Shown one piece after another: positions 9,621 to 32,781 of a stretch of DNA of 64,000 bases. The DNA lies in contig CM119264.1 in the NCBI GenBank assembly GCA_051294375.1, positions 28,999,930-29,063,929 on the forward strand. Reading direction: 5' to 3'. Made by a program: the position numbers and the translations under genes. The stretch comes from Paraspadella gotoi. Taxonomy: Eukaryota; Animalia; Chaetognatha. Position 1 is the first letter of the stretch, and each line of letters starts with the position of its first letter. The notes under the pieces were generated by a model that worked only from the letters and a program-made list of their open reading frames with translations, had not been told where the DNA came from and did not search any database.

Positions 9621-12600
9621 AACCGCAAAAGATTCCATAGAAGAGAACGAAGAGAGTGACGATGCCAAGAAAGATGAGAGGCCATCTCTCTTTCTTGGCC
9701 TCAGCCAAATCCTCTTGGCTCAGAATGCCGTTCTCTCTCTCCTTCTTTTCTCCGTTGATCAGGCGATTTTGGACTTGGCGAATGAGGATGTAAAGAAGTA
9801 GACCGACTTCGAAAATGCCGACGATGGCCACGCAAGATTCTTGCATCGGAGTCATTTCTCGTTTGCCTGGACAATAAAAATATTTTTGTTTGGTTGGTAT
9901 TTGTATGGGTTGGTCAGCGTGCTAGTTGGGTCAAAAGATGAATCAGTTTGGTCATTTGTAAGGGTTGGTCGGCGTGCTAGTTGGGTCAAAAGATGAATCA
10001 ATTTGGTCATTTGTATGGGTTGGTCGGCGTGCTAGTTGGGTCAAAAGATGAATCAGTTTGGTCATTTGTTTGATGTGTTTGCCTTAATAGGAGTTTGATT
10101 GTTTTGTTGGAGGCATTTAATCTTTACAGTCTAAAAGTCAACCAATTCCTGGCAATTTGAATTTGTTAAATCTTTTCTCGCTCAAATCATTTCCAAATTG
10201 ATCTATAAAATGTGCTATCATTCCAATAAAAAAAAAGAAATAATCAATTTTCGCTAATTTTTAATTAAATAAATCATTACCTCCTGAAGAAAACAAATAA
10301 ATGAAGCCAGAGATTAGAGCGATGATCCCCAAAAGCCAAAGACATAAACCAAATATCGCATGAACCAAGTTGAAAGTGAAGCGCAAATTACTTGAAGGAC
10401 CTAAAGGTAGAGGATAATGTTATAAGTACAGGACATATGTATATGTATTGTTTTGTCTCATATCACCATTAATGAAAAATTTCAACAACATTTCAAATTA
10501 ATATTTTTTGGTTTTGTGCTTGTTGTGCACGTCCAGTAATTGTTCCATGCCAAACATGATAAAAATCAAACAAAAAAAATTGGTGACCTGGCCTCATGAG
10601 CCCCATGATGGCTTGCACGATGACCAAGAGAAAAGTGATAAAACCGCTGACTGTGTGAAGTTTTTCCAGTTCGAGCTCCCAAGACTCATACTTCATGGAG
10701 AGAACGAAGCCGGCGACGGTGAAAAGAAGAGCTGAAGGAAATAACGAGAAAATATTTCAAATCTTGTTACGGAAGTTGGTACGAAATGGACGAGCAGCAA
10801 TTTTTAGTAAGTCACTTACCCGTGATCATCGACGCGGCGTGAGCAGCGAACCAACTGCGTTTCCCAAAGATTTTTCCGTTGCCTCCTATCAAACGGAAAG
10901 AAGTGGAAATGGTGACTCCTAGAGGCACAGCGCCGATCCAAGCGATCGACATGAATGTTCCGTGGAGTTTAATAGGCCATTTCTCTTTCGTCTTCGGTGC
11001 AGTTGTCGTTTTCATTGTTGTTGTTGCCGTTGTCTGTGGTTCCGGTGGGTTCTCCAATGGCGCGCTGAAAAAGGGAGGCATCTTGACGACCTGCTTCTAA
11101 AGTTTTAGGGTCACGTCTCTTTGTCACATATGTCTCGCTCTGTTATCCGTGTTCCAACCCTTAAATCGACCTAGAAACTCATCGTTTGGATTTTTTGTTT
11201 GCATTGAATACATTCTGGATTAACTCGGGGTAGAATTAACTTTAAAAACTCTTTAAAATTAAAAAAAGTAAAAATGAGACATAAATGATACACTGGTACA
11301 GTTACGTAAGTACTTTAAATTTTTGTAATTTCTCAATTATTATTTGTAATTAAAATAAAAATTATTTTCGAAGGCCTCTGCTTACAATCCTCGCATTCAG
11401 ATAAAAAAACTAGTTTTTCCAGTATTGTTCAGTTACTACTAAACAAATAAAATTTAAATTGCCCCATAATATAAATTAGGCCAAAATACGGATTAGTTAA
11501 AACCATCTCCAGCTATTTCTAATCATATAAGAGTAACATTTTTTGCAACTTTTAGGGAAAAAATCATGTCCATTTTTGTCCATTTTCACTTTCGTCTTCA
11601 AATTTGAATGCCAAGGAAAGTTGAGAAAATTTTTTATTTTGGAATTCCTTTCTTCCTTATCTTCTTCACCCCTGAGTAAAATATTTTCCTTATATCATTC
11701 ATAGTTCACTTATGAATTAATTTGAAAGTTGACAAGTCAAAAATTCGCAGTTTAGTTTTATTATATTTATTAAACAAAAATAGTTTTAAATTGGCTTAAA
11801 CTAACAGAAAATATAGCCCACAGAATAAGCTTTTAACATCTACAAAATTATCAAAAAAACTCATTTCGTTTTAGCCATAAATATTTTTTAAAGACGACAA
11901 TTAATTTGTGACTTTTTGTGACTTGCATTTATTTTAATAAAGATAAGATTTTAAAATTTATTTTAGTTTTAACAATTGAGGAACATACTGACGTTAATAA
12001 AACAAAAAAAACCGCATCCTTTTAAACCAATGGAAAGCGTCAGGCCTTGTTTTTTCTCAAAGATCGACAGATTTTGCGGAAATATTTTCGCAAAATCTGT
12101 CGATTTACTAAATTTGCCAGGCAACCAAAATTGAAAGAAAAATCATGAGATACCGTAAATTTCTTTTCTTATAATGGATAATAAGAAATTTCTTTGATTT
12201 GGCTCAATGTAAAGACAGAAAAGTAGTGGGAGGGAACAGGAAAGGGGAGAACAAGAAAAGGAGAAGGGGAGAATGAGAAGAGAAAGGGGAAAAGCATAAA
12301 AAAAGAAGGCAAAGGGAGAAAAAAATAAGGAGATAAAGGAAAGGCGGAAAAAGAAGGGAAAAAATGGAAAGAAAAAGAGGGGAAAAGAGGGGAAAAGAAA
12401 GAGAAGGAGAGAAGGCAATAAAAAAGGAAAAGGAAAGTGAAATATGTGGCAGAGAAAGGTAGGGTCATAGAAAAGGTAAGTTACGGCGTGAAAAGTAGGG
12501 AGGAAAAGAGGAAGATAAAAATAGAAACACAGAGAAAAAAGAGATGAAGAAAGAGAATCAGGGAAACGGTATGAAAGGGAAAAAAAATGTATCAGATAAT

Positions 12601-14674
12601 GTGGCATCTTGTCTGAAAAGTTTTGTGTAAATAAAAGCCACAAAAATTAAAAGGAGGAATTTGATCTTTAAAAGTTGTTTGTACCATAAAAAATTCATCA
12701 TACTTTCATCTCAAATTAGGTAGTTAATGAGATTAGATTGATAATCTCCGAAGAAATCATGTCTTACCGTATTTTTAACTCATAGAAATTTAACTGAACA
12801 GTACTAGGTATTAAGAATGAGATAACCATAGCAAACCGTTTTTTTAAACAAAGAAAACTTCATACAATCACTGAGATCAAAAGAGATGGTAATATTTAAG
12901 TTCAGAAATCGTTATCTAAAGGACGTCGATCGTACGTGGAGCCGAAGAATGTTTTTTATCTCACCTCAGTTTGTATTTTCGATCACTGTAAAAGTCCTTG
13001 TCATGTTTTTTAAGCCGATAATTTGTGTCAATAGTCGCAACTTCTCCATGGGCAAAGAAAATGACCTGAATTAAGAAAAGTTAAAACTAGTTTGTTCGGC
13101 AATGTTAATTTCTAACAATGTAAAAATATTTTGGTATTTTAAACTGCACCTGACACAACTCCAAACTGCTCCTGACACAACTCCAAACTGCACCTGACAA
13201 AACTCCAAACTGCACCTGACACAACTCATAAGTGTCTCTACCTGATGTTCATCAATATGATAAACTTTTGGGTCATTGACTTTCATCTCTCGGGTGAAGT
13301 TGCAGTCAATTGTAGTGTTGAAGGCGACGGCAGAGATATTGGTCAGGCCTGGGCAAGATGGATTGTAATCATGATAAAAATAATTTTAAATATACGGTTG
13401 CAATATATATATATAAAAAGCCGTTATATTCTTTAACTCTGACCAAGACTTGGATTTGACATTAGGACGTTTCCAAATGGGTTAATTGTGTTCCACGAGG
13501 CGGCCACCTCAACGCTCCCGTTCAACATCGCACAGTGGATAACGCTGTGATGAATATTTATCAATTTTATTTTTATATAATTTTGGTACAACCAATGTGA
13601 AATTCTAATTTTTTTTTATTAAACCTGCTATCTTGCGCCTGACATTGGACAATTGGACAGACTATAGTGGGTTAAGTCCTTCATCTCTCTCACAAGATAA
13701 TAACAAAGAGGAAACTCATAGCTTTTAATCAAGACTCTCTCTCTCTCTCATAGTTTATTTACTCCCACAGTGCTTGGCTTCCCTATCAATGATGTGTTAT
13801 AATGTTTTAAAGAACTTACCACTCCCTAACTATTAGATAAGGGAATACTATGGCAACAGCCGGGTTGCCTGTGATGCCCATTGGGATGGGGCATCTCACT
13901 GTTGGCTTTAGGGGCTTCCGACCCTCAGTGAGGCCTCCAGTCACTGGCGCGGTTACCCTAGGACGGTCTCGCTTTGCCAACGCAGAGGGAAGTCGTTAGG
14001 ACTGTGGATGGAACACTACGCCTGGGATGGTGTGTTCCCCCTCTGAGCCAATGGATTTGGCTGACGGATGGTGGACGTGAGGCGGTGTGAATATACCGCC
14101 ACAATACTATACTTTGATTATTATGATATTGGTACATGAAATATAAAAATGATCCATCTGAGGCGACTTATGATCGGTCTCTCTCTCTCTCTCTCAACCC
14201 TTTCTCTTTCCTGGTGGAGGACGGTAAATCCACTCGGTCGCCTCACAATGTGAGGCTTATATCCCTTCGATAACTATTTTAGTTCTCTTAGACTCACCCG
14301 TTCCTTACCTGTCCAAGCCCATCTTCGAGTCCGGTGAAAGGCCCATGGCGATATAACCGCTTCCATTGTGATTCGTTTTTCCGTGAAGTCGAAAGTCAAT
14401 CACGTCCCCGTTCGGCATCCAATCCAGTTGGTATATGCAATCGCTTCCTATCGTTTGGATTTTGGTTCGTTCATATTGGAGACACAGCAATGGACGAAGA
14501 TAGTCGAAAGGTTCGCATCGGGCATTTCGTCTTACCGCAATCATTGGGATGTTTGAGAGAGAACCAAGAGCCGAATTGCTGAAGCGTGTGACGGATTTTT
14601 GAGGCGTCGACCAATGACGTCACGCTTATCGTCACGATCATCACCCAACTCAGTGATTTGAAAGAGAGTCCCAT
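9610..14674 (-). CDS. DOMON + cytochrome b561 ferric-chelate reductase (FRRS1/SDR2-like), 9 exons, about 450 aa
   Basis: Hand-spliced GT-AG exons: 14674-14536, 14447-14309, 13544-13444, 13348-13242, 13065-12965, 11064-10820, 10731-10588, 10400-10281, 9866-9610. They sum to 1353 nt with consistent phases. The protein has a hydrophobic N-terminus, DOMON motifs (GYIAMGLSPDSKMGLDSVIHC..ASWN, IDCNFTR, FFAHG), a Thr/Pro linker and a b561 domain with four heme His (KLHG, WFAAH, KLHT, NLVHA). Intron 1 and the last exon are less certain. Confidence 0.9.
9895..10068. repeat. 55-bp intronic tandem repeat, 3 units
   Basis: TTGTA starts at 9901, 9956 and 10011. Confidence 0.9.
12062..12103. repeat. Intronic palindrome
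   Basis: ATCGACAGATTTTGCG-GAAATATTTT-CGCAAAATCTGTCGAT. Confidence 0.8.
13141..13227. repeat. 22-bp intronic tandem repeat, 4 units
   Basis: AAACTGCACCTGACACAACTCC repeated. Confidence 0.9.
13901..13981 (-). ncRNA. Twister self-cleaving ribozyme, circularly permuted type P5
   Basis: The minus strand reads GUUGGC AAA GCGA GACCG UCCUAGGG U^AA CCGC GC CAGUGA-9nt-UCACUG AGGG UCGGAAGC CCCU AAA GCCAAC. Pairings: P5 6 bp, P2 3 of 4 bp, P3 6 bp, P4 4 bp, T1 pseudoknot CGG/CCG, T2 GC/GC. The conserved UAA, GA and L4 AAGC are present. Predicted cut between 13955 and 13954. Confidence 0.8.
14006..14051 (-). promoter_or_regulatory. Pol III type-2-like A box/B box upstream of the twister in the solo LTR
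   Basis: Minus strand TGGCTCAGAGG (A-box-like) followed about 30 nt later by GTTCCATCC (B-box-like). Confidence 0.4.
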
Positions 14675-14918
14675 TATCTCACCGATGCAGAGGCTTTAAT
14701 AAAAATTCATTTAAATATCACTTTTCTTTTACGAAAATTAAATTACCGACAGATTTGTCGGTACCGACTATTAGTAAATTTTGCTAATTACTTATTTTAC
14801 TATACTAAAATTAATTTTTATTTGATTGGTTTTCAAACCGTATGGATCGAAACGCTCTGACGCTCAAATCGGGCTGGGCTTTTGTACTCGACGATGGCAC
14901 GGCCACGAGGACCTCACT

Positions 14919-14978
<60 letters not shown>

Positions 14979-15448
14979 CTCTTTCTCTCTCTCACTCGTC
15001 ATTGATTGAATCCAGTTGAGCAACTTCGATTTCAAATCGATTCAAGAAGAGAAAGAAAACAGGTAATTAAATAGATAAATTCGATTGAATCCGCACAATT
15101 AGTCGAGAACTCAGAAACTTACTTGATAAATGTATAGTTGAAAAGTTGAAATGTTTAATGTATGTATAAATATCCAATCAAACTGTACGTATGATCAGTT
15201 ACTTTCTGGCATTTGATATCAATCGTGTTTTGCATTGTAGAGATGATCAGTCTTGATCAGATGATTAGTGCAATGGTCTTTCTCTCTATCTCTCTCTCTT
15301 CATTCATCTATCTATTTATTATTAAATGTATATTAGATAAAAGAGAACAGGCTGTTAAAGAAGTTGCGGATAGCACTCTTTAGCCCCACTTAGCGCCATA
15401 TCCACATATTCTTACAGACAAAGAAAGATTTTTATTTAAATTGTTAAA

Positions 15449-15930
15449 TAACAAGTTTGAGCAAACAATGCCGGATCTGCCCACGATCATTAGCGGTAAG
15501 CAGCTAATCAGATAATTAATTAATTAATATTAATTTTTTTTATTCGTGTCAAAATCGTTTTCCACTTTGTCTCGCCTCTCAATCACAAAACAGCAATCTC
15601 GATCACAAAATTAATTAATTAATTAATTACAAATAATTAATTAATTACTTATTTATTAATAATTAATTAATGCAGCTTGAATTTACATTTAATATAAAAA
15701 TAAAAAAAGCATAATCAAATAGTGAAATAGATTGTTTTTTTAATTTTTACTCATTTCCACTTGGACGATTCCATGGAAACTTTATTTTCTGCTTAATCAC
15801 ACACTTTCCTATCAACGTACAAAATGTGAAGTCAATCGCCCCATTCACTAATGAGTAATTGGCTTGAAATATATTTTTTGGGGTTTTTTCCATTTTAACT
15901 CATTTGCACTCGGACGATTCCGGCTAAAAA
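15449..15930 (+). mobile_element. Family D copy (duplicated at about 29270-29790)
   Basis: Same start motif and AT-rich body as the 8610 copy. Confidence 0.65.
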
Positions 15931-16262
15931 CTTTTATCTTACCCGGAGTGCTTTGAGAAGTACTATACTAATGAAAGTTTCTGACACCCAATGAGAAAAA
16001 AAATGAAAACCGGATTTTTTTTCCAGGGCTTAAAATATTTTTATGAAACTTATAAAATTAAAAAAAAAAAAGATAAATAATACAAAACGTATGTATAAAT
16101 GTATTTAGATCTACTTTTTTTAACGATTTTGCTAACTTTATTAGTTGTCGAGTCATATTAAGATAATCTTTCAGTTATTTTCTTTTCAAGAGGATTATAT
16201 TAGTGACTTCGCTCTTTGAGTATCTCTCTCTCTCTCGCTCTCTTCTCTCTCTCCTCGCTCTC

Positions 16263-16307
<45 letters not shown>

Positions 16308-16314
16308 CTGCGCT

Positions 16315-16351
<37 letters not shown>

Positions 16352-16705
16352 CTCATCCTTCACTCTCACTGTCTTTGTTTGTCCGGATCTGTTTCTGGCA
16401 AGAGATTTTCCTTTTCGCGAGAAACAAGATTAATTTGAATATTCATTTGGGGTAAGTATAAATACATTTCTTGCTACAATAACAATGAATTTCAGTCTTT
16501 TTTTATTGTAAGTGAAATGTTTTTGTACTTTTAAATGTTTTCTTGTCTTATTTATATGCTTTACATTTTAATATATGTTTTTTAGGAATCTTTTTTAACT
16601 TAGGGGACCAAATGTTAAAGAGAGAAAAGTGACAATTTTGTGAAATATATTATTACAAAATGATCATCTCTTATATGAGCATATTTCTTTTATTTTTCGT
16701 TATGT

Positions 16706-16742
<37 letters not shown>

Positions 16743-17228
16743 TGTTCTTCAGATTTCGGATTTAAGGATTCGCTGACTGAGCATTTTTTTTATTAATTAA
16801 ACAATTTCGATGCTTTTGTCATCGTCGTCATCGTCGTCGTCGTCGTCATCATTACTCGGCGACCAGAATTTAAAACTATTACAAGATTACACGATTTGAT
16901 TCAACGGTACTATAGTCATAGATGTGTTAAAAAGACGAAGGATGTCAATTTTATTACCTATTTTATAATATTTATTTCCGACGACAATAAAATATATAAT
17001 TTTTTTTTTTAAACAATTGGAATTTTATAACCGTTAGTTTTTCCTCTCGCATTTATATTGCTGCCAAAATAAATTTTTAATCGGCAATAAGATGTGAAGA
17101 GTAATAATATCTTAGGGTAAAAAATCGGGCGTGACGCAATAAAATGCGATTCTTTCACATAATTTTTTCTCACTCCGACTCCTCACCATATTTTTCAAAA
17201 GCCGAAAATTTCAGCTTAAATTCAAAAT

Positions 17229-17410
17229 TAGGTTTCAAGAGTTAAGGGTGAGAGATAAGGATTAGGAATAAGGATTAGGTATAAGGATAAGGATTAGGGA
17301 TAAGGTTTAGGGACAAGGATTAGGGATAAGGATTAGGGAGAAGGATTAGGGATAAGAATTAGGATTAGGATTAAGATTAGGTTTAGGATTTGGTATAGAG
17401 TGTAAGGTTA
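17229..17410 (+). repeat. Degenerate TTAGG(G/A)-like hexamer array; similar arrays at 40575-40925 and 49255-49400
   Basis: Interspersed TTAGGG, TTAGGA and ATAAGG units. The 40.6-kb array has a higher-order period of about 60 bp. Confidence 0.75.
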
Positions 17411-17544
17411 CATCTTGGTGTGCTTAAAATTAGGTCAGGGATTAAGGACAAGTCCGGGACGCCTTTTGTAAAATAGTGCACAATAATTTCAACTACTTTT
17501 TTCTTTTCCCTCTTCATAATTAGATTTTCCACCTACGTCTTGAC

Positions 17545-18190
17545 GAGACTCAACTCGACTCGACTCTACTCGACCTGACTTGCTTGACTCGCCTCGCCTC
17601 GACTCGCCTCGACTCAACTTTTGACTTGAATCTTGACTTGAATTTTGATTTGACTCTTGACTTGACGTTATTTTAAGGTTACATCTTGGTGTTAAAATTA
17701 AGGTCAGGGATTAGGAACAGTCCGGGACACTTTTGTAAAATAGTGCAAATAATTTTAACTACTATTTTTTCTTTCCCTCTTCATAATTAGATTTTCCACC
17801 TACGTCTTGACTAGACTCAACTCGACTCGACTCTACTCGACCTGACTCGCTTGAATCGACTCGACTCGACTCGACTCGACTCGACTCGACTCGACTCGAC
17901 TCGACTCGACTCGACTCGACTTGACCTGACTTGCCTCGCCTCGCCTGACTCGACTTTTGACTTGAATCTTGACTTGACTTTTGACTTGACTTGTGATTTG
18001 ACTTTTGATTTAACTCTTGACTTGACTTTTGATATAACTCTTGACTTGACTTTTGACTTGACTTTTGATTTGACTTTTGATTTGACTTTTGACTTGACTT
18101 TTGATTTGACTCTTGACTTGACTTTTGATTTGACTCTTGACTTGAAATTTGACTTGACTTTTGACTTGACTTTTGACTTCACTTGACATT
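17545..18190. repeat. (GACTC)n and (TTTGACTTGACT)n satellite within a local duplication of about 270 bp
   Basis: Pentamer run at 17850-17920 and 12-mer run at 17955-18180. 17404-17670 is repeated from 17675. Confidence 0.85.
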
Positions 18191-18720
18191 TGATCAGACT
18201 TTACTACCCAAACTCCCGAAGATGTTCTTTTCGTGGACAAATTGACAAAGATTTCAAAGGTTGCAACGAGAAAGGGAAATTGAGGTCGGGATGAGGGAAG
18301 AAAGGAAAGGGGAAAGGAAATTGAGGTAGGGACCCACTCAGTTGTCAATGTCATAGAAAAGGATCTCGGCTCTCGGCTTTTCCTTCTCATTGTTTGGTTG
18401 AGGGTTCCGTCTCTTAGAGCATATCTTATAAGTTATAACATCCTTGTAATGTGAGGAGGGAGAGACTAACAGTTACATTTTCACTTTTCACTTCCCCCTC
18501 CTCTGCCTCTCCTCTTTACCTCCTTTATCTCTTCCTCCACCTCCTCCCATCTCCTGCATCTCCCCCTCCTCTTCCTCCCCCCATCTCCTGCTCCTCCCCC
18601 TCCTCTTCCTCCCCCATATCCTGCACACCCACCACTTCTTCCTCCGCCACCCACAACGGCGTCGATTCCGCCTTCGAGAGGCGAAGAATTTATTTCTTTC
18701 TTCCAAATCAAAATCATCTC

Positions 18721-18752
<32 letters not shown>

Positions 18753-19050
18753 TNNNNNNNNNNNNNNNNNNNNNNNNNNNNNNNNNNNNNNNNNNNNNNN
18801 NNNNNNNNNNNNNNNNNNNNNNNNNNNNNNNNNNNNNNNNNNNNNNNNNNNNGACGAACTCCGCCTTCGAGAGGCGAAGAATTTATTTCTTTCTTCCAAA
18901 TCAAGAATCATCTCTCTTCTTCTTTCTTTCTTTCTTTCTTTCTTTTCTTGTCTTCTTTTCTTTCTTTCTTTCTTTCTTTCTTATTAATTCTTTCTTTCTT
19001 TCACAGAGGAGATTTTGTACGTTATTTTCCGGATTAGATGAGAGAGAGGT

Positions 19051-19089
<39 letters not shown>

Positions 19090-19594
19090 GCGCCCTAGGC
19101 GATTAGGTCAGACAACAAGCCGCCAATCGTTTCGTCAACTTTTTATTCAATTTTTTTTCAGCCTCAGAATCAGATGGTTCTCAGTCAGATGGTTCTCTTC
19201 GGTCTTAGTCATTGCCGGTGTTACAGGAAAGAATATTCTGGCACGACGACACCACATTACCGTTCATATTAATCAATTAACCAATTAACCAATTAATAAA
19301 AAAGTTCTTGCCTTTCGTTGGAATGTCACGCTTGTACGCCGAGCGGGAACGCAACGCGAGAAAGCCAAGATAATATGCGCAAGACGAAGACGCCACGCTT
19401 TGCCACGCTTTGCCACGCTAGCCTCGCCACGCTCCCGCCACGCGATGAGGATCGTTTTTCCGTCTATGAATTNNNNNNNNNNNNNNNNNNNNNNNNNGGC
19501 GAATGTTTACTTCCTTCTTTTCGTTCGGAAGATCCCAATTTCCTCTGCCCGTGTTGATGGCGTCCTGTCGGTGAGCGTCGGGTTGATGTATGGC

Positions 19595-19955
19595 GGAGGG
19601 GTGGCAGGGATGTGGAAGGAGGTAGGTGGAGGGGTGTGGAAGGAGGGGCGTGTGAAGGAGGGCGTGGGAGGGACGCCGTGTGGAAGGAGGGATGTGGAAG
19701 GAGGGGCAGGGATGTGAAGGAGGAGGGGGGAGGGATGTGGACAGGAAGGCGGGAGGGATGTGAAGGAGAGGGCGAGCGGATGTGGAAGGAGGGGAGAGGG
19801 ATGTGGAAGTGTAGGGGGAGCGGATGTGGAAGGACGGGGGGAGGGATGTGGAAGCGAAGGGGGAGGGTGTGAAGGAAGGGGGAGGGATGCTGGAAAGGAG
19901 GGGGCTGGAGGATTGTGGCAAGGAGGGGGGGTCTATTGCGGAAGGAGGGGGTGCA
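19595..19955 (+). repeat. G-rich tandem repeat of about 20 bp (GGGATGTGGAAGGAGGGG); longer copy at 33580-34262
   Basis: Direct inspection; strongly strand-biased G tracts. Confidence 0.85.
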
Positions 19956-22429
19956 GCAGTGTTATCCACACCGTGGAAAAGTTCATGTCTCGACTTTTAG
20001 GCAATTTTCTGATTGATTTTTGGCAAATATCTTGTCTTTAAACTCCGTTTGCCATTATCTATTAAACGTTATTTCGTTTTTGTCTTAGTACGAATTATTA
20101 TTTCAGTGCAGTCTTTGCTTTTTTTGTTTTTTTTTTTTTTTTCCGATGCAAATTGTGAATTTTTTGATTGCATGGTTTGGTACCACAAATCATTATATCA
20201 CCGTCAGAAAATTAACTAATTTTTTATAAAAACCAATATATTTTTAATTTAATCAATTCAACAGCTCTTTCGCTTAAGGTTTTCTGTTGACATATATATT
20301 TGTTTATTTTAATTGATGAATGAAAGTGCCAATACAGTGTGCGATTAAGTTGGCCAGAAGTGATTTAAGAATGAAATGAAGCCTCCGAGAATTTCCTTAA
20401 GGTTCAGCTTTAAGTTGTCGGGATATTTAGGGATAATCATCGAAACTTTAACTTCAAAGAAGGCGCATTTCAAATAAAAAAGCTGGGGTTGGCTGTCGAG
20501 AGAGCATAACCCTTGTTTGCGTTTTTTTTGCTGGGTTTTTTCGTTTTAAGAAAGAAATCATGGACGCTTGCAAGTTAACTAGTTTATGTAAATCCGAAAT
20601 TTTTTATTTTCTATATAAAGTTAACTAAGAAGTTGCGGAGTCGACGAAAGAGAGATGAGAGGAGAAAAGAGAGAGAGAAAAAAGAAAAGAGAAGAAGAAG
20701 AGACTAGGAGAAGAAGAGGGAAGAAGAAAAGAGAGGCTGAACGAATCAGCGATGCTGCGTTGATAAGCTAAGAGAGAGAAAGAGAAGAGAGAGATGACGA
20801 TGAGAGAGAGAGCACGAGAAGAGGAGAAGACACGAGATGAGAAAGAGAGCAGAAAGAGAAGGGAGAGAGAAAAAAAAAAAAAAAAAGAGAGCAGAGAGAG
20901 AGAGAGCGAGAAGAGATGAGGAGAGAGAGAGAGAGCATCGTAACTAAGCCTCTGCAGCATGTGAATCATATACATACACATGTGACACTCATATCCATCT
21001 AGTGAGATAAATGCACAAAGATCGTAGATACAGTTCACTCTCTGAGAGAAAGACTATGAACGAGTCTCGTGCATACTCTCTTGATTGAACGCTCTAATGG
21101 TACTCTGCATTAACAACTCGTCTTGACAGCACACTCATCAAATCTCTTCTCCTAATTAAACGACTCACTCCTCTAGTGATACAGTAGCCTCTCCTCCTCC
21201 GTTCATATCGCATCTCTCCTTACTCTCTTTACACTCTCCTCTCTTACAACTCTCTTACAACTCTCTCTAACATCTATATTTTAAACTCTGGCTCTTTACC
21301 TCTCTTCTTATTCCATTGAACATAACTACCCTAATTGAACCCACTCTCTCTTTTTTGCCATACAACCGCTACTCTTACTACCTCCGTAATGATTTTTGAT
21401 TAACTACCGCCGTACTTTTGCTACTCCTCTAACCTAAACTAAATTTCGACTTGCCGTATCGTCTATAACCATACTATTCAAGCAATTCGAACTTCTTTTT
21501 TCTATTACCCATACTCATTAAATCAAGATTGATGCTTCGATTAAGTCATAATAAAGGGCATCGTTACGCTCATTATTGACATAGTCAGTCTTATGATGCT
21601 TCTGACTGACATCTCATTCATTTAACTTTTCTACAATCGTCTAAGCTTGATTACGACTTACTCTCTCTTCTTCATGACCTCAATTGGATAAACTCCAATT
21701 CACTTCATCACATATCTCGTAACTTACTAAAGCATAACATGCCTCTCGTCTGCTTTTCTTATACTGTGAGTGAAAGTAACGAATCGTGTTAAAGTAGCAG
21801 TCTATAAACAACTCTCTCTCTCTGAGAGAGAGACTGAGTATAATTGAACTCATCTAGACGCAAGAAGAAAGTACAAGTGTCTCTCTACTATTAAATTAAA
21901 CCCTATCGAACAATTCTCTGACGATGTTAAATCTCCTTTTCGTGATTCTTCTTGTCTATGCATACATAACATGATCGCCTCGTCCATAACTACTCTTAAT
22001 AATCGCGATATAAAATAGTAACAACAATCTGGCATACCTCCAAATACCCTACTATACATCCTACTTATAATCATCTTACTACTACATCTAACTTAATCAA
22101 CCGCCCTATACCTCCCCACTGCATCTTCGCCTATCTAAGACCGAAAAGAAAAATATTAAGGGTGATAAAAAAGGCGACGACGAAAAAGAAAATCTCTTCT
22201 CCGGTGAAATGAACAAAATAATAAATAATAAACAAACAAAATCAAAAAAAAACTATGAGCTGTGAATACAACTTTGGTTCGTTCACGAGTTGATCCCTGA
22301 TTAATTCGTGAATCATTCATCGCCTCACGAATGTGAAATCAAAGGAACAAAACAAAGACGAAATAGGGGATGCAAAAGTGTATATCGGTGACTCTTTCTC
22401 GCTCTCTCTTTCTCTCTCTCTTTTATTTT

Positions 22430-22998
22430 TGTGGATAAGGCGCTACGTGGGCTGAAGATGACTGTCCGTAACTTCTATAACCCCCTCTAGCAGCCATGGA
22501 ACGGGTCCCTGGGCTTGGAACCAGGCTTGAGGGTCACAACTGAAAGTGTCATGATTCTAGGCGGGGTGAACCTAGGCAATGCCCGACTACATGCCCCCCA
22601 GATTGTAACCCACCCTGCACTGCTTCCAGTGGAGGGAGGGGAGCAATCTTCAGCTAGACCAAGGGCCTGGAATCAGAAGGTTGGAATACGCTCGACAGGA
22701 TGGGCTCACCAGTGTGGTTAAGGCGCTACGTGGTCTGAAGATGACTGTCCGTAACTTCTATAACCCCCTCTAGCAGCCATGGAACGGGTCCCTGGGCTTG
22801 GAACCAGGCTTGAGGGTTTGCCATGCCCCCAAGGCGGCTAACGGCCGTCCTCACGCTTCCCGCAGGGTAGGTACCGGGTTGGGATTGAACCCGATACCTA
22901 GTGGTCATGAGCTGATGGCTTTACTCAATGAGCCACCGGGTCACAACTGAAAGTGACATGATTCTAGGCGGGGTGAACCTAGGCAATGCCCAACTACA
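22430..22998 (-). mobile_element. TRIM-like element, family B, with a 124-bp deletion in the 3' LTR
   Basis: 5' LTR 22998-22713 (286 bp), internal region 22712-22592 (121 bp, PBS and PPT), 3' LTR 22591-22430 (162 bp). The termini match the 63-kb copy. Flanks TTTT/TTTC form an imperfect TSD. Confidence 0.85.
22784..22863 (-). ncRNA. Twister-like (type P5) module in the 5' LTR
   Basis: GCGGG AA GCGU GAGGA CGGCCG UUA GCC GC [P3] G [CCUGG UUCCAAGC CCAGG] GA CCCGU. It has UUA rather than UAA at the expected cleavage site and a weak P2. Confidence 0.5.
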
Positions 22999-23877
22999 TT
23001 TCTCTTGTTTGTTCACAACTCACAATTTGCTTCGACGGGGATGTCACTCGGATATTTTTTATAAAATTAGTACAACCAATATCATAATTATTCATTCGTT
23101 TTTTAAATGAGTTATCTTGTCCACCATAAAACTAACTTCTCGGTAAAAAATCCTAGTAAATGAACCGGAAATTAAATAAACAAAAAAAAAAAAAAAAAAA
23201 CAATAGATAAGGAAAAATTCATTTCCTGGGCCAAGCTTGCTTCCATGCTTGCTTCCAAGCTTGCCTCCACGCTCTCGTAGTTTCTACAGTTCAAATTTCC
23301 CCTCAGCTGGCGTTTGCCACCCCTGCGACCGACAGGTTGGACTTTAATGGCGTTGCCAGTCGAGGGTGTGTCTTCCCCGCCATTTTAATGATGAACATAA
23401 ATTTTCGTCTAAATCATTGATGCTTCCCGTCCTTCGCGTTGAGGCGTAAAATCTGGGAGAGGGAACAAAAAGCGGGAAAAAGAAAACGGCGAGAGAGAGA
23501 GAGGGAGAGAGAGAGAGAAATAGAGCGAGAGGGAGAGAGGGAGAAAAAAAGAGAGAGAAAGAGAAAGACGGAGAGAGAGAGGAGAGAGAGAGAGGGAGAC
23601 GGGGGAGAGAGAAAGAGACAAAGAGAACGAGTGAAGGAGAGAGAGAGAGATAAAAAGAGAGAGAGTGAGAGAGGGAGTAAAGAAGAAGAAAAAATAAATG
23701 GGAAAACACCAAAAAAAAAAAAAAGAGATAGGAGAATAGAAAGAAAGGGAAAAATAATGGGATAAAAATAAAGAAAAAGGAAAAAAAGGAAAATTCGGGT
23801 GTGAAAAAAAAATTTTGAATTAAAATGAGGAATTTTTTTTATTGAGGTGAAGAGAGGCGGGCGGTTGGGGGGGGGGC

Positions 23878-24422
23878 ACTTGAGAAAGCCTTGTATAGAG
23901 AGACCTCCAGGTTAAACTCCCCGCTCTTCTCGCTGGGAGACCCACCAATTCGCCTAAACACTGAGAAAGGCTTGTATACGAGAGACCTCCAGGTTAAACT
24001 CCCGCTCTTCTCCGGACCCACCAATCGCCTACACTCGAGAAAGCTTGTATAGAGAGACCTCCAGGTTAAAACTCCTGCTCTTCTCGCGGACTCCACCAAT
24101 CGGCTCTACAACTGAGAAAGCTTGTAATAGAGAGACCTCCAGGTTAAACTCCCGCTCTTCTCCGGACCCACCAATCGCCTACACTGAGAAAGCTTGTATA
24201 GAGAGACCTCCAGGTTAAACTCCGCTCTTTCTCCGGACCCACCAATCGCCTACACTGAGAAAGCTTGTATAGAGAGACCTCCTAGGTTAAACTCCTGCTC
24301 TTCTCCGACGCCACCAACTTCGCTAAACTGAGAAAAGCTTGTATAAGAGAGACCTCAGTAAACCCGCTCTTCTCCGGACCCACCAATCGCTACACGAAAA
24401 GCTTGTATAGAGAGACCTCCAG
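23878..24422. repeat. 71-bp minisatellite, about 7.5 units (duplicate at 36042-36586)
   Basis: Unit AGAGACCTCCAGGTTAAACTCCCGCTCTTCTCCGGACCCACCAATCGCCTACACTGAGAAAGCTTGTATAG. Confidence 0.9.
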
Positions 24423-26030
24423 CGGGTAAGGGGGAGGCGTTGGGATCTCGGAATTTCGCTGTATTTTCAGTCCGCATCATTGAGTCATCCTGTCGTGTAG
24501 AGCTCAATCTTAGCTGCGTTGTCGAGGGCAGTAATCCTGTATCGTAGAGCGGAATTATCGCTGTATTGCGCGGCGGATTTATCACTTATATCATAGTGTT
24601 CCAATCACCCTGTATTGACAGAGGGTAGTAAAGGTAGTAATGGCTTTGCACCACTGTATCGGAAGAGGCGAGTTATGCTGTATCATGATCGCAGTAACCC
24701 TGTATTGCCAGAGTCGAGTCACCATGTATCCTAGAGCGCAAGTAACCCTAGTATCGTAGAGCCATTGTTTTTTCCCGACGCCCATTTGTTTTTCCTTGTT
24801 GTTTACCGCTTTTAAGTTCTGTGGTGACGACGGAGACGAATCGAGACACGCCCACTTTGGCGGACGTCGGACACGCCCACTTTGGACGTCTTCTTCGATA
24901 AAGAAAGTGAGGGTAAGGATGGGAAAGGTCAAGAGTTCAAGCCCTGTATCTTTAGAGTTAATGGTTTCATATTCGCGATGAAAACGGACCTAGATTTATT
25001 TCGCACAATTTTGCGAATTTTTAAATACGATTAGGTGCTAATATGTAATTAAAAAAGTGAATAAAATAAAATAAAACATTAAACATAAACTTTTTTAGGC
25101 GCTCTCTTCTTTGCTCATTTAACATTGTCGATATTGTTTAACAGCGATACATTCACAAAATTAGCATTTATGTCCGTCTATGAATTTTAAAAAATTGCCA
25201 TATTCGAACGCCGTGACGTTTGCTCATCTCTACGATATTTCCCCGAAGAAGAGCTTTTAATTGACCTTCTATTGACTTTGCGCGACATGTTAATTGACCT
25301 GTTTTTGACCCTCTTGTCATGAACAAGACATTCAAGAGTTTCCTTTTTCCCTTCGAAAAACAAAGGAAAATAGAAAATAAAAGAAAAACGGGGAGGGAGA
25401 AAGGAACAGGAGGTTTCAAAGAAAACAGAAAGCAAGTGAGCAAGTGTGGGATATACCTGAGAAATCGTTTTCAATTTTCTACCTGATACTTATATTTTAG
25501 TGAGGAGTTTAAAAGTGCAAGACAGTTCATTTGAGTATGGAAATGTAGTCTAGAACATTGAAACTTCGGCAATTGAATGTGACTATGAAATGGAAATCAG
25601 ATGTAGACAGCAGAGAATTTGGTTTGTTGATTTCCCATTTTGCCTATGAATCAATTTAAAGCGATAAAGCAAAATAAAAGCGGAAAAAAAAGCAAAACAA
25701 AAGAGTAAGAGAGGGAGAATTGAAATAAAAGACAAAAAGTAAAATGATAATAAGGGAGGGAAAAAGTGAGAGCAGAGAGATGAGAGAGAGAGAGAGAGAG
25801 GACAGAGAGAAAGAGAAGAGAGAGAAGAGAGAGAGAGAGAGAGAGAAAGTGAAGGAGAGAGGAGAGGAGAGAGGTGGTGACAGAGAGAACCAGAGAGACA
25901 GAGAAAGAAAGAGAGAGAAAAAAAGAGAGAGAAAGAGAGACAGAGAGAAAGACAGACAGAGAAAGAGAGACAGAAGAAGAGAGAGTAAGAGAGAGGAGAG
26001 AGAGAGAAGAGAGAAAAGACACGAAAAGAA

Positions 26031-26067
<37 letters not shown>

Positions 26068-26227
26068 TGAGAGACAGAAAAAATGAGAGATAGAAGAAAG
26101 AGAAAGAGAGAGAGAGAAAGAAGAGAGAGAGAGAGAGAAGAGAGAAGAGAGAGAGAGAGAGCAGAGAGAGAAAGACGAGAGAGAGGAGAGAGAGAAGAGA
26201 GAGAGGAAAAGACAGAGAAAGAAAGAA

Positions 26228-26259
<32 letters not shown>

Positions 26260-27306
26260 GAAAATGAGAGACACGAGAAAAGGAGAGAGAAAATGAGAGA
26301 CAGAAAAAGAGAGAGACGAGAGGAGATGAGAGAGAGAGAGGAGAGAGAGAGAGGAGAAGAGAGAGAGAAGAGACTGAAAACGACTCACCTGCCGCGAGAG
26401 AGGAAAAAGGGGCAAGGGCAAAACCCCCGAGGGAACAGAACCAGGTGAGACACCATTTTTTCAAGACGATCTTCTTCTGATGTTTCGTCGTTGTAGTCGT
26501 CGTACGTCATCATCATCAAAAATCATCATCATCGTCGTCGTAGTCGTCGTCCATCAATATGTATTTAATCATCATCGTCGTCATCAAAATCATCGTCATC
26601 AAATCAATCATCAGCATCATCATATTATCATCATCATCATCTTTTGTTTATTTGACATTGAGGTCTCAAGTTGTTGTTTCTGTTGTTGTTGTTGGCTAAT
26701 CTGCGTCCATACCTGAACTGGTGACCTTTGTTGTTGTGCCTCACGTCAAGGATAATGACATCGTCGCGTCGGCGTCGTCGTCGGCTCGCTCGTCGTTGTA
26801 TTTTTATCCCATTCCATCGCCATATTTGGGGCAAAATAACAAATAATGTGATTCTTTCTTAGAGAGAAGAGAGAGAGAGAGGAGGGAGAGAGAGAGAGAG
26901 GAGAGAGAAGAGCCAGAGAAGAGAGAGAGAGAAGAGAGAGAGAGAGAGGAGAGAGGAGAAGAGAAGAGGAGAGAGAAGAGAGAGGGAGATTTTTTATAGC
27001 TTTTGTTCGTGTTGCAGCCAAGACAAATGTTCCCGGTTTTTCAACAACGTGGTATAAAATATTCGAAAAAGTGGAAAAAAACGTTTATGACGAATTTAAG
27101 TCTGGCATACTTTGTTCTTTAGTTTCTCTTAGTTCGAGTTCGCAGAATTCAATTATTGAGCCCTAAAAAATTATAGACAAGAGTAAACGTTCTAAAAGAA
27201 AACTATATTATCTTATGTTGAATTAAAATCGGTGAAGGAGAGTTTCGAACGACGAACGGCGACGACAATTTCTCTTCAGATGATTGACAGTTCTTTTTTT
27301 TTTATT

Positions 27307-27359
<53 letters not shown>

Positions 27360-28005
27360 GCGACTGAAAGACTCAGTGATTCCACAAAAGAAAATAAATA
27401 AAACCGACGCCGCTCTTATCGTCGTCCTCCGCCCCCTCTCACTTCCGGCGTTCCCCGGCGTTTTCCCGCCCCTTTGCCCCCCGCACAGACCGGCGTTTTT
27501 GAAAACGGGGGCGTCGTTTCGCGCGACGGAGCACAAACAATTCTGGCGCCGGAACGTTAGATGTCGCTTTTTCGCCAATTGCCCGCGCGAGAAACAAAAG
27601 GGAAAACAAAAGGCTCCGAAACGAAGTAAACAGTCGCAGGAATTAATGATATACAGGAAANNNNNNNNNNNNNNNNNNNNNNNNNGACTGTGATGGAACA
27701 CTACGGCCTGGGATGGTGTTGTTCCCCCTCTAGCCAATGGAGTGGCTGACGGATGCCGTGGACGTGAGGCGCGTGTGAATATACCGGCCACAATACTCAT
27801 ATACTTTGATTATTATGCATTTGGTACATGAAATATAAAAATGATCCATCTGAGGCCGACTATGATCGGCTCTCTCTTCTCATCTCTCTTCAACCCTTTC
27901 TCTTTCCTGGTGTGAGGACGGTAAATCCACGCGGTCGCCTCACAATGTGAGGCTTATATCCCTCGATAACTATTTAGTTCTCTTAGCACTCACCCGTTCC
28001 TATAC

Positions 28006-28394
28006 CTGTCCAAGAGCCCATCTTCGAGTTCGGTGAAAGGCCCATGGCCGATATAACCGCTTCCATTGTGATTTCGTTTTTCCGTGAAGTCGAAAGTCAA
28101 TCACGTTCCACCGCTTCGGCATCCAATCCAGTGGTATATTGCAATCGCTTTCCTATCGTTTGGATTTTTTGGTTTCGTCATTATTGGAGGACACAGCAAT
28201 GGACGAAGATTAGTCGAAAGTTCCGCATCGCGGCATTTTCGGGGTCTTACCGCAATTCATGGGATGTTTGAGAGAGAACCAAGAGCCGAATTGCTGAAGA
28301 CCGTGTTGACGGATTTTGAGGCGTCGACAGATGACGGTCACGCTTATGACGTCACGATCATCACCCAACTCAGTGATTTGAAAGAGAGTCCCAT
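28006..28394 (-). pseudogene. Frameshifted copy of exons 1-2 of the FRRS1-like gene inside the duplicated block (probably artefactual)
   Basis: Near-identical to 14309-14674 except for many 1-3 nt indels; downstream exons are absent. Confidence 0.6.
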
Positions 28395-28712
28395 TATCTC
28401 ACCGATGCAGAGGCTTTAATAAAAATTTCATTTAAATATCACTTTTCTTTTTCTTACGAAAATTAATATTACCGACAGATTGTCGTACGACTCCAATTAG
28501 TAAAAATTTTGCTAATTACTTATTTTACCTATACTAAAGATTAATTTTTTATTTGATTGGTTTTCAAACCGTTATGCGATTCGAAAACGCTCTTGACGCT
28601 CAAATCGGGCTGGCTTTGTACTCGACGGATGGCACAGGCACGAGGACCTCACTCAATCTTCTCTCGACTTCTCTCTCTCTCTCTCTCTCTTCTCTCTTCT
28701 TCTCTCTCTCTC

Positions 28713-28764
<52 letters not shown>

Positions 28765-31700
28765 CTCGTTTCTCTCTCTCACTTCGTCATTTTGATTGAA
28801 TCCAGTGACAACTTCGACTTCCAAATCGATTCAAGAAAGACGAAAGAAAACAGGGTAATTAAATAGATAAAATTCGATGAATCCCGCACAATTAGTCGGC
28901 ACGAACTCAGAAACTTATCTTTGATAAATGTTTATAGTTGAAAAGTTGAAAATGTTTAATGTATGTTATAAATATCCAAATCAAACTGCTACGTATGATT
29001 CAGTTACTTTCTGGCATTTATGATATATCAATCGTGTTTTGCATTGTAAGAGATATGATCAGTCATTGATCCAGATGATTAGTGCCAATGCGTCTTTCTT
29101 CTCTATCTCTCTCCATCTTCATTCATTCCTATCTATTTTAATTATTAAATGTATTATTTAGATAAAGAGAACAGGCTGTTAAAGAAGTGCGGATAGCACT
29201 CTTTAGCCCCACTTAGCGCAAATCCACATATTCTACAGACAAAGAACAGATTTTTATTTAAATTGTTAAATAACAAGCTTGAGGCAAAAACAATGCCGGA
29301 TCTGCCCTACGATCATTAGCGGTAAGCAGCTAATCAGATAATTAATTAATTACATATTAATTTTTTTTATTCGTGTTCAAAATCGTTTCCACTTTGTCTC
29401 GCCCTCAATCACAAAAAAACAGCAATTCTCGATCACAAATTAATTTAATTAATCTAATTACAAATAATTAATTAATACTTATTTAATTAAATAAATTAAT
29501 TAATGCAGCTTAAATTACATTTAAATGATAAAAAATAAAAAAAGCCATATCAAATAGTGAAATAAGATTGTTTTTTTAAATTTTTACTCATTTCCCACTT
29601 GCGACGATTCCATGGAAACTTATTTTCTGCTTAATTCACCACACTTTCCTATTCAACGGTACAAAATGCTGAAAGTTTCAATCGCCCCATTCACTTAATT
29701 GAGTAATTGGCTTGAAATATATTTTTTGGGGTTTTTTTTCCATTTTAACTCAAATTTGCACTTCCGGCCCGGACGGATTCCGGCTAAAAACTTTTATCTT
29801 ACCCGGGAGTGCTTTGAAGAGAGATACTATACTAATGCAAAGTTTCTGACCACCCAATGAAGAAAAAAAAAAATGAAAACCGTAATTTTTTTTTCCAAGG
29901 GCTTTAAAATATTTTTATGAAACTATAAAATTAAAAAAAAAAAAGACTAAATAATACAAAAACGTTATGTCATTAAATGTATTTAGATCTACTTTTTTTT
30001 AACGATTTTTTGCTAACTTTATTAGTTGTCGAGTCATATTAAGATAATCTTTCAAGTTAATTTTCTTTTCCAAGAGGATTATATAGGTGCTTCGCTCTTT
30101 GAGCTATCTCTCTCTCTCTCGCTCTCTCTCATCTCTCGCTCTTCATTTTCTCCTCTCTCTCTCTCTACTCTCTCTCTCCTCTCTCCTCTCTCTCTCTCTC
30201 TACTCTCTCTCTCTCTCTTAACTCATCCTTCACTCTCACTGTCTTTGTTTGTCCGGTATTCTGTTTCTGCAAGAGATTTTCCTTTTCGCGAGGAAACAAG
30301 ATTAATTTTGAATTATTCATTCGGGTAAGTATAAATACATTTTCTTGCTTACATAACCAATGAATTTCAGTCTTTTTTATTGTTAAGTGAAATGTTTTTG
30401 TACTTCTTAAATGTTTTCTTGTACTTATTTATATGCTTTACATTAATTATGTTTTTTAGGAATCTTTTTTAACTTAGGGGGACCAAATGTTAAAGAGAGA
30501 AAAGTGACAATTTTTTGTGAAATATATTATTACAATAATGATCATCTTCTTATGTATGCAGCATATTTCTTTCTATTTTTCGTTTATGTTTCGCTCCGTC
30601 GTCGTCGTCGTCGTTCGTCGTTCGCTCTGTCGTCGTTTGTTTCTCAGATTCGCGGATTAAGGATTCGACTGGACTTGGCAGCAATGAGCATTTTTTTATT
30701 TGAATTAAACAATTTCGATGCTTTTCATCGTCGTCATCGTCGTCGTCGTTCGCATCATTACTCGGCAGACCAGATTTTAAAACTATTACAAGGATTACAC
30801 GATTTGACTTCAACGGTTACCTTGATAGTCATAGATTGTGTTAAAAAGACGAAGGATGTCAATTTTATTCCTATTTTTATAATATTTTATTTTCCGGAAC
30901 TACAATAAAAAATATAATTTTTTTTTTTTAAACAATTGGCAAATTTTATAAACCGTACGTTTTTCCTCTCGCATTTATATTGCTGCCAAAATAAATTTTT
31001 AATCGGCAATAGATGTGAAGAGTAAATAATATCTTAGGTAAAATCTGGGCGTGACGCAATAAAATGCTATTCTTTTCACATTGAATTTTTTCTTCACTCC
31101 GAACTCCTTCACCATACTTTTTTCAAAAGGCCGAAAATTCAGCTTAAATTCAAAATTAGGCTTTCAAGAGTTAAGGGTGAGAGCATAAGGATTAGGAATA
31201 AGGATAGGTATAAGGATAAGATTAGGGATAAGTTTAGGGACAAGGATAGGGAGATAAGATTAGGGAGAAGGATATAGGGATAAGAATTTAGGATCTAGGA
31301 TTAAGATTATTTTAGGATTTGTAATAGTAGATTAAGGTTACATCTTTGGTGTTTAAAATTAAGCGTCAGGGCATTAGGAACAGTCCGCGGACGCTTTTGC
31401 TAAAATAGTGCAAATAATTCAACTACTTTTTTTCTTTCCCTCTTTCATAAAATTAGATTTTTCCACCTTACGTCTTGACCGAGACTCAACTTCGACTCGA
31501 CTCTTACTCGACCTGACTTGCTTTGACTCGCCTCCGCCTCGGGACTCGCCTCGACTCAACTTTTTTTGACTTGGAATCTTAATTGACTTGAATTGTTGAT
31601 TTGACTCTTGACTTTGACGTTTATTTTTAAGGTTATCTTGGTGTTAAAATTAAGGGTTTTCAGGGGATTAGGACACAGTCCGGACACTTCTTGGTAAAAT

Positions 31701-32781
31701 AGTGCAAATAATTTTAACTACTATTTTTCTTTCCCTTCTTCTAATTAGGATTTTCCACCTACGTCTTGACTAGACCTCAACATCAGACTGACTCTACTCG
31801 ACCTGACTCGCTTGAATCGACTCGACTCCGACTCGACTCGAACTCGATCCGACTCGAGCTCGACTCGCGGACGACTCGTACTGCGACTCGAACTCGACTT
31901 GACCTGACTTGCCTCGCCTGCGCCTGACTCGACTTTTGGACTTGAATCTTGACTTGACTTTTGACTTGACTTGGATTGAACTTTTGATTTAACTCTTTGA
32001 CTTGACTTTTGATATAGACTGCTTGACTTGACTTTATTGACTATTGCACTTTTGATTTGACTTTTATTTGTACTTTTGATTTGACTTCTGATTGACATAC
32101 TGACTTTTGATTTTACTCTTGACTTGGAAATTTGTACTTGACTTTTGACTTTGACTTGTTGACTTCACTTGACATTTGATCAGACTTTACTAACCCAAAA
32201 CTCCCCGAAGATGTTCTTATTTCGGGACCAAATTGACAAAGATTTCAAAGGTTGCAAACGAGAAAGGGAAATTTGAGGTCGGGATGAGGGGAAGAAAAGG
32301 AAAGGGGAAAGGAAATTGAGGTAGGGACCCACTGCAGTTTGTCAATGTCATAGGAAAAGGATCTCGGCTCTCGGCTTTTCCTTGCTCATTGTTTGGTTGA
32401 GGGTTCTCGTCTCTTTAGAGCATATCTTATATAGTTATAACATCCTTAGTAATCCCTGTGAGGAGGGAGAGAACTAAACAGTTACCATTTTTCACTTTTC
32501 ACTTCCCCCTCCTCTGCTCTCCTCTTTACGCATGCCTTTTATCTCTGTCCTTCCACCTGCCTGCCATCTCCTGCATATCCCGCCTCTCATCTTCCTCCCC
32601 CATCTTACCTGCTCCTCCCCCTCCTCTTCCTCCCCCATATCCTGCAACACCACCACTTCTTTTTCCTCCGCCACCCACAACCGGCCGTCGATTCCGCCTT
32701 CGAGAGGCAGAGAATTGTATTTTCTTTCTTCTCGCAAAATCAAAATCATCTCTTTTTCTTCTTTCTTGATTTCTTATCTTT

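Follow-up and report, generated by a model that had tools for sequence, protein, structure and literature searches.

A P5-topology twister motif in a high-copy LTR-like repeat of the chaetognath Paraspadella gotoi, and its likeness to plant LTR retrozymes

Introduction

In plant retrozymes, ribozyme-cut RNA is circularised and Gypsy enzymes copy the circle; the products, either full or solo LTRs, are flanked by 4-bp duplications (PMC4918200; LTR, long terminal repeat). The retrozymes described from animals have neither an LTR nor a primer site and carry type I hammerheads (PMC7229834; bioRxiv 10.64898/2026.07.22.740005). Eukaryotic twister ribozymes are tied to the non-LTR element Perere-3 (PMC8501958), and twisters are also reported in viroid-like circles (bioRxiv 10.1101/2022.07.19.500677). 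The available parts of PMC13725137 and PMC5680766 hold nothing on LTRs, and a literature search that covered mostly papers free of subscription, Repbase left aside, turned up no report of an LTR that carries a twister. Here we describe a twister motif inside a 255-bp LTR-like repeat of Paraspadella gotoi. The repeat lies in a stretch of 64,000 nucleotides (GenBank assembly GCA_051294375.1, contig CM119264.1, positions 28,999,930 to 29,063,929), which we call the window and by whose positions all features are numbered.

A twister motif on the minus strand

All the core elements of a twister occur in P5-permuted order on the minus strand, from 13981 to 13901, inside the 255-bp repeat. The termini are at P5 and the strand order is P2b-T1-P1-UAA-P2a-T2-P4, which is the type-P5 topology. 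The parts are as follows.

13901..13981, minus: twister motif of P5 topology, closed by a 6-bp P5 (from its anatomy, a structural descriptor and the alignment with phage twisters)
13981-13976 with 13906-13901, minus: P5, 6 bp (pair probability 0.95-1.0 in the 81-mer)
within 13981-13901, minus: AAA joining P5a to P2b, and a second AAA before P5b (motif reading)
13972-13969, minus: P2b, pairing with P2a (13952-13949) at 3 of 4 positions; the C.A adjoins loop L1
13964..13968, minus: GA (13968-13967) and the T1 3' strand CCG (13966-13964), in a register shared with phage P5-order twisters
13956..13963, minus: P1 segment, 8 nt, self-complementary and too short for a stable hairpin (energy calculation)
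13953..13955, minus: U^AA, with the predicted cut at 13955/13954, which would divide the LTR into an upstream part of 149 nt and a downstream part of 106 nt
13947..13952, minus: P2a (13952-13949) and T2 GC (13948-13947) (motif reading, phage alignment)
13926..13946, minus: P3 hairpin, 6 bp, 13946-13941 with 13931-13926 (pair probabilities 0.9-0.99)
13910..13925, minus: P4 and loop L4 UCGGAAGC, which carries the T1 5' strand CGG and the T2 GC (motif reading, phage alignment)

A first-pass annotation of these letters had proposed a type-P5 twister here, and every element that it listed sits where it was placed, on the minus strand and in P5 order. The conserved core bases (U^AA, GA, GC and the GUC..AAGCC loop) are all present. 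Both pseudoknots are fully paired, T1 as CGG/CCG (3 bp) and T2 as GC/GC (2 bp). P2 consists of 3 pairs and a C.A mismatch beside the active-site loop, and P4 has 4 of 4 pairs in the window copy. The cut site is placed by the U^A rule from PMC8501958, and G13968 is the predicted general base, by analogy with the role described for this G in PMC5408937 and PMC6765202. By anatomy the motif is a twister; by score it falls outside the Rfam P5 family.

The core pattern matches the window once and has no match in 100 shuffles. A structural descriptor that requires the stems but leaves T1 free also matches once, with no match in 1500 dinucleotide-shuffled windows; the descriptor was composed after the motif was seen and tolerates the motif's defects. 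The core letters also match 71 public loci (70 from metagenomes and 1 viral), but none of the 71 combines 3 P2 pairs with 2 P4 pairs, and these loci lack the stems and any similarity to the element. Patterns specific to the element gave 0 matches in viral contigs and 0 in prokaryote genomes, and the Rfam search of the stretch gave no match to a hammerhead.

A looser pattern retrieved at least 120 viral loci, and 26 of 120 pass tests of T1, P2 and P4. Twelve phage loci were aligned with the window motif. The 11 of these that were run against Rfam (L104, L152, L141, L138, L145, L135, L171, L179, L188, L178 and L189) all reach the Twister-P5 gathering score, while the other 9 of the 20 loci run against Rfam have a twister-P1 match below its threshold. 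The window motif is in register with the 12 phage rows and forms 12 of the 13 motif pairs, the C.A being the one left unpaired. Across phage and window rows together, the pseudoknot cells are 100% paired and all cells 98% paired, partly by construction, because the phage rows were selected for pairing. The P2 and T1 pair types of the window motif occur in none of the aligned phage rows, and the outer P4 pair is missing in 2 of the 12. Among the 26 phage loci there are five T1 types, none of them CGG/CCG; P2 always has 4 of 4 pairs, and the P1 segment is 14-24 nt long.

The resemblance to known twisters is beyond chance, and the motif is real: the anatomy, the shuffled controls and the alignment with phage P5-order twisters all back the topology that was first proposed. 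The CGG/CCG form of T1 had been singled out as a joint change of both strands. It does support the fold, but because T1 varies in nature (five other types in the 26 phage loci) it is not in itself exceptional. T1 swapping is normal for the twister class, whereas the short P1 and the P2 mismatch are peculiar to this repeat family.

We also noticed a phage P5-order family with T1 CCG/CGG and UGA in place of the usual RGA context (L082, L115, L125, L128, L130, L137, L143, L144, L146, L151, L155, L168, L178, L187 and L189). Two tested members pass the Rfam threshold.

The 255-bp element, its ends and a putative primer-binding site

Among public sequencing runs, the stretch is present in 12 of the 14 listed, and contigs of four runs (X1, X2, X9 and X10) were compared. 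In X1 the unique flank has a depth of about 40, against 0.8-1.0 million between 13849 and 14103. The depth ratios (about 21,700 in X1 and 5,400 in X2) are not copy numbers, and we read them only as "thousands or more". Among the best-supported rows listed, loose ends at 13849 come from 133, 154 and 32 contigs of X1, X2 and X9, and those at 14103 from 75, 75 and 17. Beyond both ends, the flanks are AT-rich and unrelated from contig to contig. The bounds of the first-pass annotation, 13849-14103, agree with these data.

13849..14103, minus: LTR-like element, 255 bp, TG..TA ends, solo, with no internal region at this site (depth step and loose ends)
13845..13848, plus: target-site duplication, left copy ATAC, adjoining the boundary at 13849
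14104..14107, plus: target-site duplication, right copy ATAC, adjoining the boundary at 14103
14006..14050, minus: two weak motifs, 36 nt apart, that resemble polymerase III box A (from 14050) and box B (from 14014), each with one mismatch; they may be chance

The element reads TG..TA, not TG..CA. Placing TG..CA ends inside a 6-bp duplication is disfavoured because contigs, including the primer-site contig described below, match the element through 13849. Further groups of loose ends at 13845, 14104 and 14106, together with the majority letters of the flanks, suggest a preferred palindromic RTAY-like target, as with integrases. Both ends are sharp: there is neither a tail nor a 5' truncation series in the contig data, and the contig tables list no pile-up of copy starts or ends at the predicted cut site. 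The termini form a short imperfect inversion (5 of 6). Within the LTR there is no AATAAA or ATTAAA signal, and ARAGORN calls no tRNA. The window holds no empty site; a zero in X2 depth at 13821-13834 was not read as one. Depth in X9 is about twofold higher over 13863-13904 than over 13947-13988, which we did not use, as the RNA status of X9 and X10 is a guess.

The one X10 contig compared comes from organism B and has a depth of 6 and 3 differences; it spans 14039-13849 and continues for 85 bases beyond the LTR end. TGG begins two bases past the 3' end of the LTR. Compared by eye with tRNA-Trp fragments taken from PMC6903752 and PMC8722339, 9 of 10 bases there complement the 3' end of tRNA-Trp, including its CCA, and a further 13 of 13 complement the T-arm side. 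This junction, on a single contig, has the geometry of an extended tRNA-Trp-type primer-binding site. The geometry makes the minus strand the sense strand, which is also the strand of the twister. As in the LTR retrozymes, a ribozyme thus lies inside the LTR in sense to the primer site, but it is a twister in the place of their type III hammerhead. Sharp ends, a 4-bp duplication, diverse flanks and one primer-site junction support the first reading of the repeat as a solo LTR. A pyrimidine run behind 14103 in the X9 majority line (agreement 0.47) was too weak to be taken as a purine tract.

Variation among the copies

In X1, 5,516 of 8,204 contigs are at least 95% alike; the repeat family is young. 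The P2 mismatch and the very short P1 had been described as defects of the motif. Both are present, but they are features of the family and not damage to the window copy, because almost no alternative letters occur there: at the mismatch sites 13969 and 13952 no other letter is listed across the family, and the two central P1 bases have only 2-3% variants, in X2. The window copy differs from most family members at 13910, 13932 and 14065, and the common letter at 13932 would, by inspection, add one P3 pair. Most variation inside the motif is in the P3 loop (variants at 13932, 13933, 13935 and 13939).

With paired and core sites taken from the structure predicted for the window copy, and with contig-weighted depths, 3 of 161 paired or core sites vary by at least 2% in both X1 and X2, against 13 of the 94 free ones (Fisher p 2e-4). 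For all 27 listed variable sites, the split is 9 of 161 against 18 of 94 (p 1e-3). Of the sites that lie within the motif, 1 of 63 paired or core and 3 of 18 free vary by at least 2% in both runs. At the same threshold, the 122 nt upstream of the motif contain 12 variable sites, and the 52 nt after it vary as little as the motif. The pattern points to selection on a fold. Covariation among copies, which had been suggested as a check, did not appear: inside the twister there is no compensatory pair, only avoidance of paired and core sites.

Upstream of the twister, variants at 14015 and 14033 affect the two partners of a single hairpin pair; together in one copy, they would compensate for each other. 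Among the 30 variants listed across 13849-14103, 8 are CpG transitions, suggesting that the genomic copies are methylated.

The host gene and other repeats in the window

The element lies in sense in an intron that opens at 14308, and the predicted cut is 354 nt past the donor.

14309..14442, minus: host exon with a DOMON domain (Pfam DOMON, E 1.7e-6); the donor GTAAG at 14308 opens the intron
10496..10756, minus: downstream host exon region with a cytochrome b561 domain (Pfam PF03188, E 7.9e-5); a second piece at 10282-10398 has E 0.0078

From their domains, the DOMON and cytochrome b561 exons likely belong to the same minus-strand gene, ferric-chelate reductase-like, at 10282-14442 of the window. 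No reverse transcriptase or integrase was found among the 40 and 5 window reading frames scanned. Large introns and GA microsatellites point to an invertebrate animal, although searches with the exons returned no named relative.

About 13 kb of the window recurs: 14000-27660 is found again at 27686-39790, directly after a run of N, at 87-89% identity and with many small indels. This is likely an error-rich assembly duplicate and not a real tandem copy. The LTR piece at 27686 is part of this recurrence and lacks the twister half, and we rejected it as an independent copy. A 71-72-bp tandem repeat array is present in both halves of the duplicate, at 23881-24422 and 36046-36586. A second high-copy repeat, 13574-13814, ends 35 bp from the LTR, with an X1 depth of about 120,000 and loose ends at 13814. 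Older copies of it lie at 1338-1561 and 62025-62247, and its start recurs at 14122-14157. Another dispersed repeat has copies in both orientations, at 22533-22998, 41675-41850 and 62963-63634.

A retrozyme-like cycle and its rivals

The motif anatomy, the element ends, the duplication, the high copy number and one primer-site junction were observed directly. By analogy with plant LTR retrozymes, we give about an even chance to the reading that the repeat stems, as a solo LTR, from a non-coding element that depends on Gypsy and works as they do. A plant-type retrozyme cycle is the best explanation because the layout is the same.

We infer for this cycle a two-LTR parent, its transcription and cleavage, circles, a dimer and a helper element. 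A transcript across LTR, inner region and LTR would be cut at U13955^A13954 in both LTRs. The resulting unit-length RNA would lack the terminal repeat on which normal strand transfer depends. With an active ribozyme 106 nt from the LTR end, terminal repeat and primer site would end up on separate molecules, and ordinary LTR replication would be blocked. Instead, a host ligase would close the unit-length RNA into a circle, tRNA-Trp would prime at the site directly behind the LTR, and a Gypsy reverse transcriptase and integrase supplied in trans would yield the 4-bp duplication. Solo LTRs might come from short cDNAs or from LTR-LTR recombination. The twister would be damped by its P2 mismatch, its missing P1 hairpin and a competing fold, and would perhaps cut best when the P1 segments of two copies pair.

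Stem P1 of a twister has no stable hairpin here and could form only between two copies. The P1 segment is calculated at 0.0 kcal/mol as a hairpin and -11.0 kcal/mol as a self-duplex; about 1% of random 8-mers are self-complementary. A strand-swapped twister dimer is calculated at -54.0 kcal/mol, versus -40.6 for two twister monomers (pseudoknots are unscored in these and all other fold energies, monomer or dimer). P1 is dispensable for twister cleavage in vitro (PMC5408937), and in the rice twister T1 pair swaps are tolerated and activity stays high after 33 of 69 single changes to P1, P2 and P4 (PMC5113685). In dimeric hammerheads, the short stem III pairs with itself between copies (PMC6765202, PMC7761336). 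Our literature search, largely of open papers, found no natural dimeric twister.

Several observations weigh against the retrozyme-like reading. The minimum-energy fold of the motif is a competing non-twister structure, at -28.5 kcal/mol versus -19.3 to -20.3 for the nested twister stems. In the competing fold, P2a pairs with the T1 strand. The fold z-score of the whole LTR, -2.6, counts in favour of the reading, but the plus strand folds nearly as well (z -2.15). The twister dimer is surpassed in stability by a pair of blocked monomers (-57.0) and by the predicted lowest-energy dimer, which has no twister fold (-64.7), so that the strand-swapped dimer is a lead and not a result. At 13910, most of the family has a letter with which the outer P4 pair of the window copy cannot form. 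The P2 and P1 of the motif are unlike those of all 26 phage loci, and the variant test depends on the predicted structure and contig weighting given above.

The covariance models fail too. No Rfam family reaches its gathering score over the motif; the threshold of 37.6 for Twister-P5 (RF02684), a model with a long P1 and no P3, is not reached. The sole trace is a truncated twister-P1 match of 17.9-18.9 bits against a threshold of 67.2 (E 0.54 to 0.048), in a below-threshold listing that keeps only the best family of each clan. A model that we built from 10 phage P5-order twisters does put the site first of 10 matches, but at 11.5 bits (E 0.43) and through the P4 half only. The covariance-model check that the first-pass annotation had called for was therefore not passed, because of the short P1 and the P2 mismatch that are peculiar to this family. 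As for the element, a single contig carries the primer-site junction, at depth 6 and from the run of a different organism; no contig among the joints and loose ends listed spans LTR, inner region and LTR; the contig data establish no polypurine tract; and no run among the listed public runs holding the stretch is recorded as RNA.

A more ambitious version would make this the first animal LTR retrozyme and the first with a twister: tRNA-Trp-primed, Gypsy-dependent, in thousands of copies, with the twisters of its two LTRs cutting as a strand-swapped dimer through the palindromic P1, as a twister equivalent of the double hammerhead, and with sense intronic copies able to cut host pre-mRNA. We consider the whole of it doubtful.

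The repeat might instead be the solo LTR of an autonomous Gypsy element, in which the twister sets an RNA end or limits expression, without a circular stage. A 4-bp duplication and a tRNA-Trp-type primer site fit Gypsy (PMC10886601), and the inner region is visible for 30 bases only. However, cutting 106 nt short of the LTR end would part primer site and terminal repeat and so prevent the usual strand transfer (the argument of PMC4918200), the very high copy number and folded 255-nt LTR are more like those of non-coding elements, and the window frames scanned hold no Gypsy enzyme. We regard this explanation as unlikely.

It is also unlikely, in our view, that the twister was captured, is now silent or nearly so, and rides as a passenger in an ordinary terminal-repeat retrotransposon in miniature (TRIM). 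Such a passenger could well have the P2 mismatch, the missing P1 hairpin, the competing fold of P2a on the T1 strand and the weak covariance-model scores. The youth of the family may account for its conservation, as the 52 nt after the motif vary equally little, and the window copy is in sense in an intron, where fast cutting should cost. But the catalytic and pseudoknot bases are all intact and are avoided by the common variants, even though the 122 nt upstream have 12 variable sites, and twisters that lack P1 or carry mismatches do cut (PMC5408937, PMC5113685, PMC8501958).

We also considered that the 255 bp might be a whole element, SINE- or MITE-like and perhaps driven by polymerase III, with the tRNA-like flank due to a chance insertion into a tRNA-derived repeat. 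The mostly unrelated flanks, the terminal inversion, the weak box A and B motifs and the single sighting of the primer-site junction are consistent with this. This seems improbable given the sharp ends, with no tail, 5' truncation series or ends at the cut site, and given a tRNA complement arranged like a primer site: it starts with TGG two bases off the end and takes in the CCA of mature tRNA. Finally, a chance likeness to a twister in a GC-rich repeat, with which the lack of a significant covariance-model match and the 81-mer's fold z-score of only -1.0 would agree, is highly improbable, since none of the 1500 shuffled windows or 71 letter-matched public loci reproduces the motif and its P2 and T1 pair types differ from those of phage twisters on both sides yet still pair.

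A twister in an LTR that bears a primer site would show that the retrozyme strategy is independent of ribozyme class and of kingdom. The long-open question of what genomic twisters do would gain a direct test. Because the motif escapes Rfam, such families are probably under-counted, and thousands of copies, here one in sense in an intron, could affect host transcripts.

Comparison with known systems

The motif shares with the type-P5 twister (Rfam RF02684) the strand order, GA, UAA, GC, the L4 core, both pseudoknots and the spacing. It differs in having an 8-nt P1 instead of a 14-24-nt hairpin, a C.A in P2, T1 CGG/CCG, a full P3 and a real 6-bp P5, and in scoring under the Rfam threshold. Like the T-variant twisters of Perere-3 in Schistosoma mansoni (PMC8501958), it is a weak-P1 twister in a high-copy eukaryotic retroelement. 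Perere-3, however, is a non-LTR element with the ribozyme at its 5' end, and there the cut defines where the insertion ends. Here the ribozyme stands within an LTR-like repeat, its P1 is internal, and the contig tables list no copy ends at the cut site.

The dimeric minimal hammerheads of Penelope-like elements and amphibian non-LTR retrozymes (PMC6765202, PMC7761336) likewise have a short palindrome as closing stem, which can pair across two copies. Those elements carry another class of ribozyme and have no LTR, primer site or 4-bp duplication, and the dimer described here is only predicted.

The Helenus TRIMs (PMC10886601) have short LTRs, a 4-bp duplication, Gypsy dependence, solo LTRs and, in some wasp families, a tRNA-Trp primer. 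Their LTRs have a clear tRNA-derived promoter, by which Helenus is defined; our element has only weak box-like motifs and no tRNA call, so membership in Helenus is not supported. The available parts of that paper mention no Helenus ribozyme, and its supplement lacks two motif strings taken from the window twister.

The closest likeness is to the plant LTR retrozymes (PMC4918200), which also have a self-cleaving ribozyme in an LTR of about 300 bp, a 4-bp duplication, a primer site behind the LTR, solo LTRs, a blocked predicted ribozyme fold and Gypsy-type features. The element described here has a twister instead of a type III hammerhead, a tRNA-Trp-type instead of a tRNA-Met primer site, TG..TA ends, a length of 255 bp and probably an animal as its host. 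For the plant elements, the two-LTR form and circular RNA are known; here there is a solo LTR and one primer-site contig. Judged by these analogies, the element most likely works like an LTR retrozyme, although it lacks the hammerhead of that group and carries a twister.

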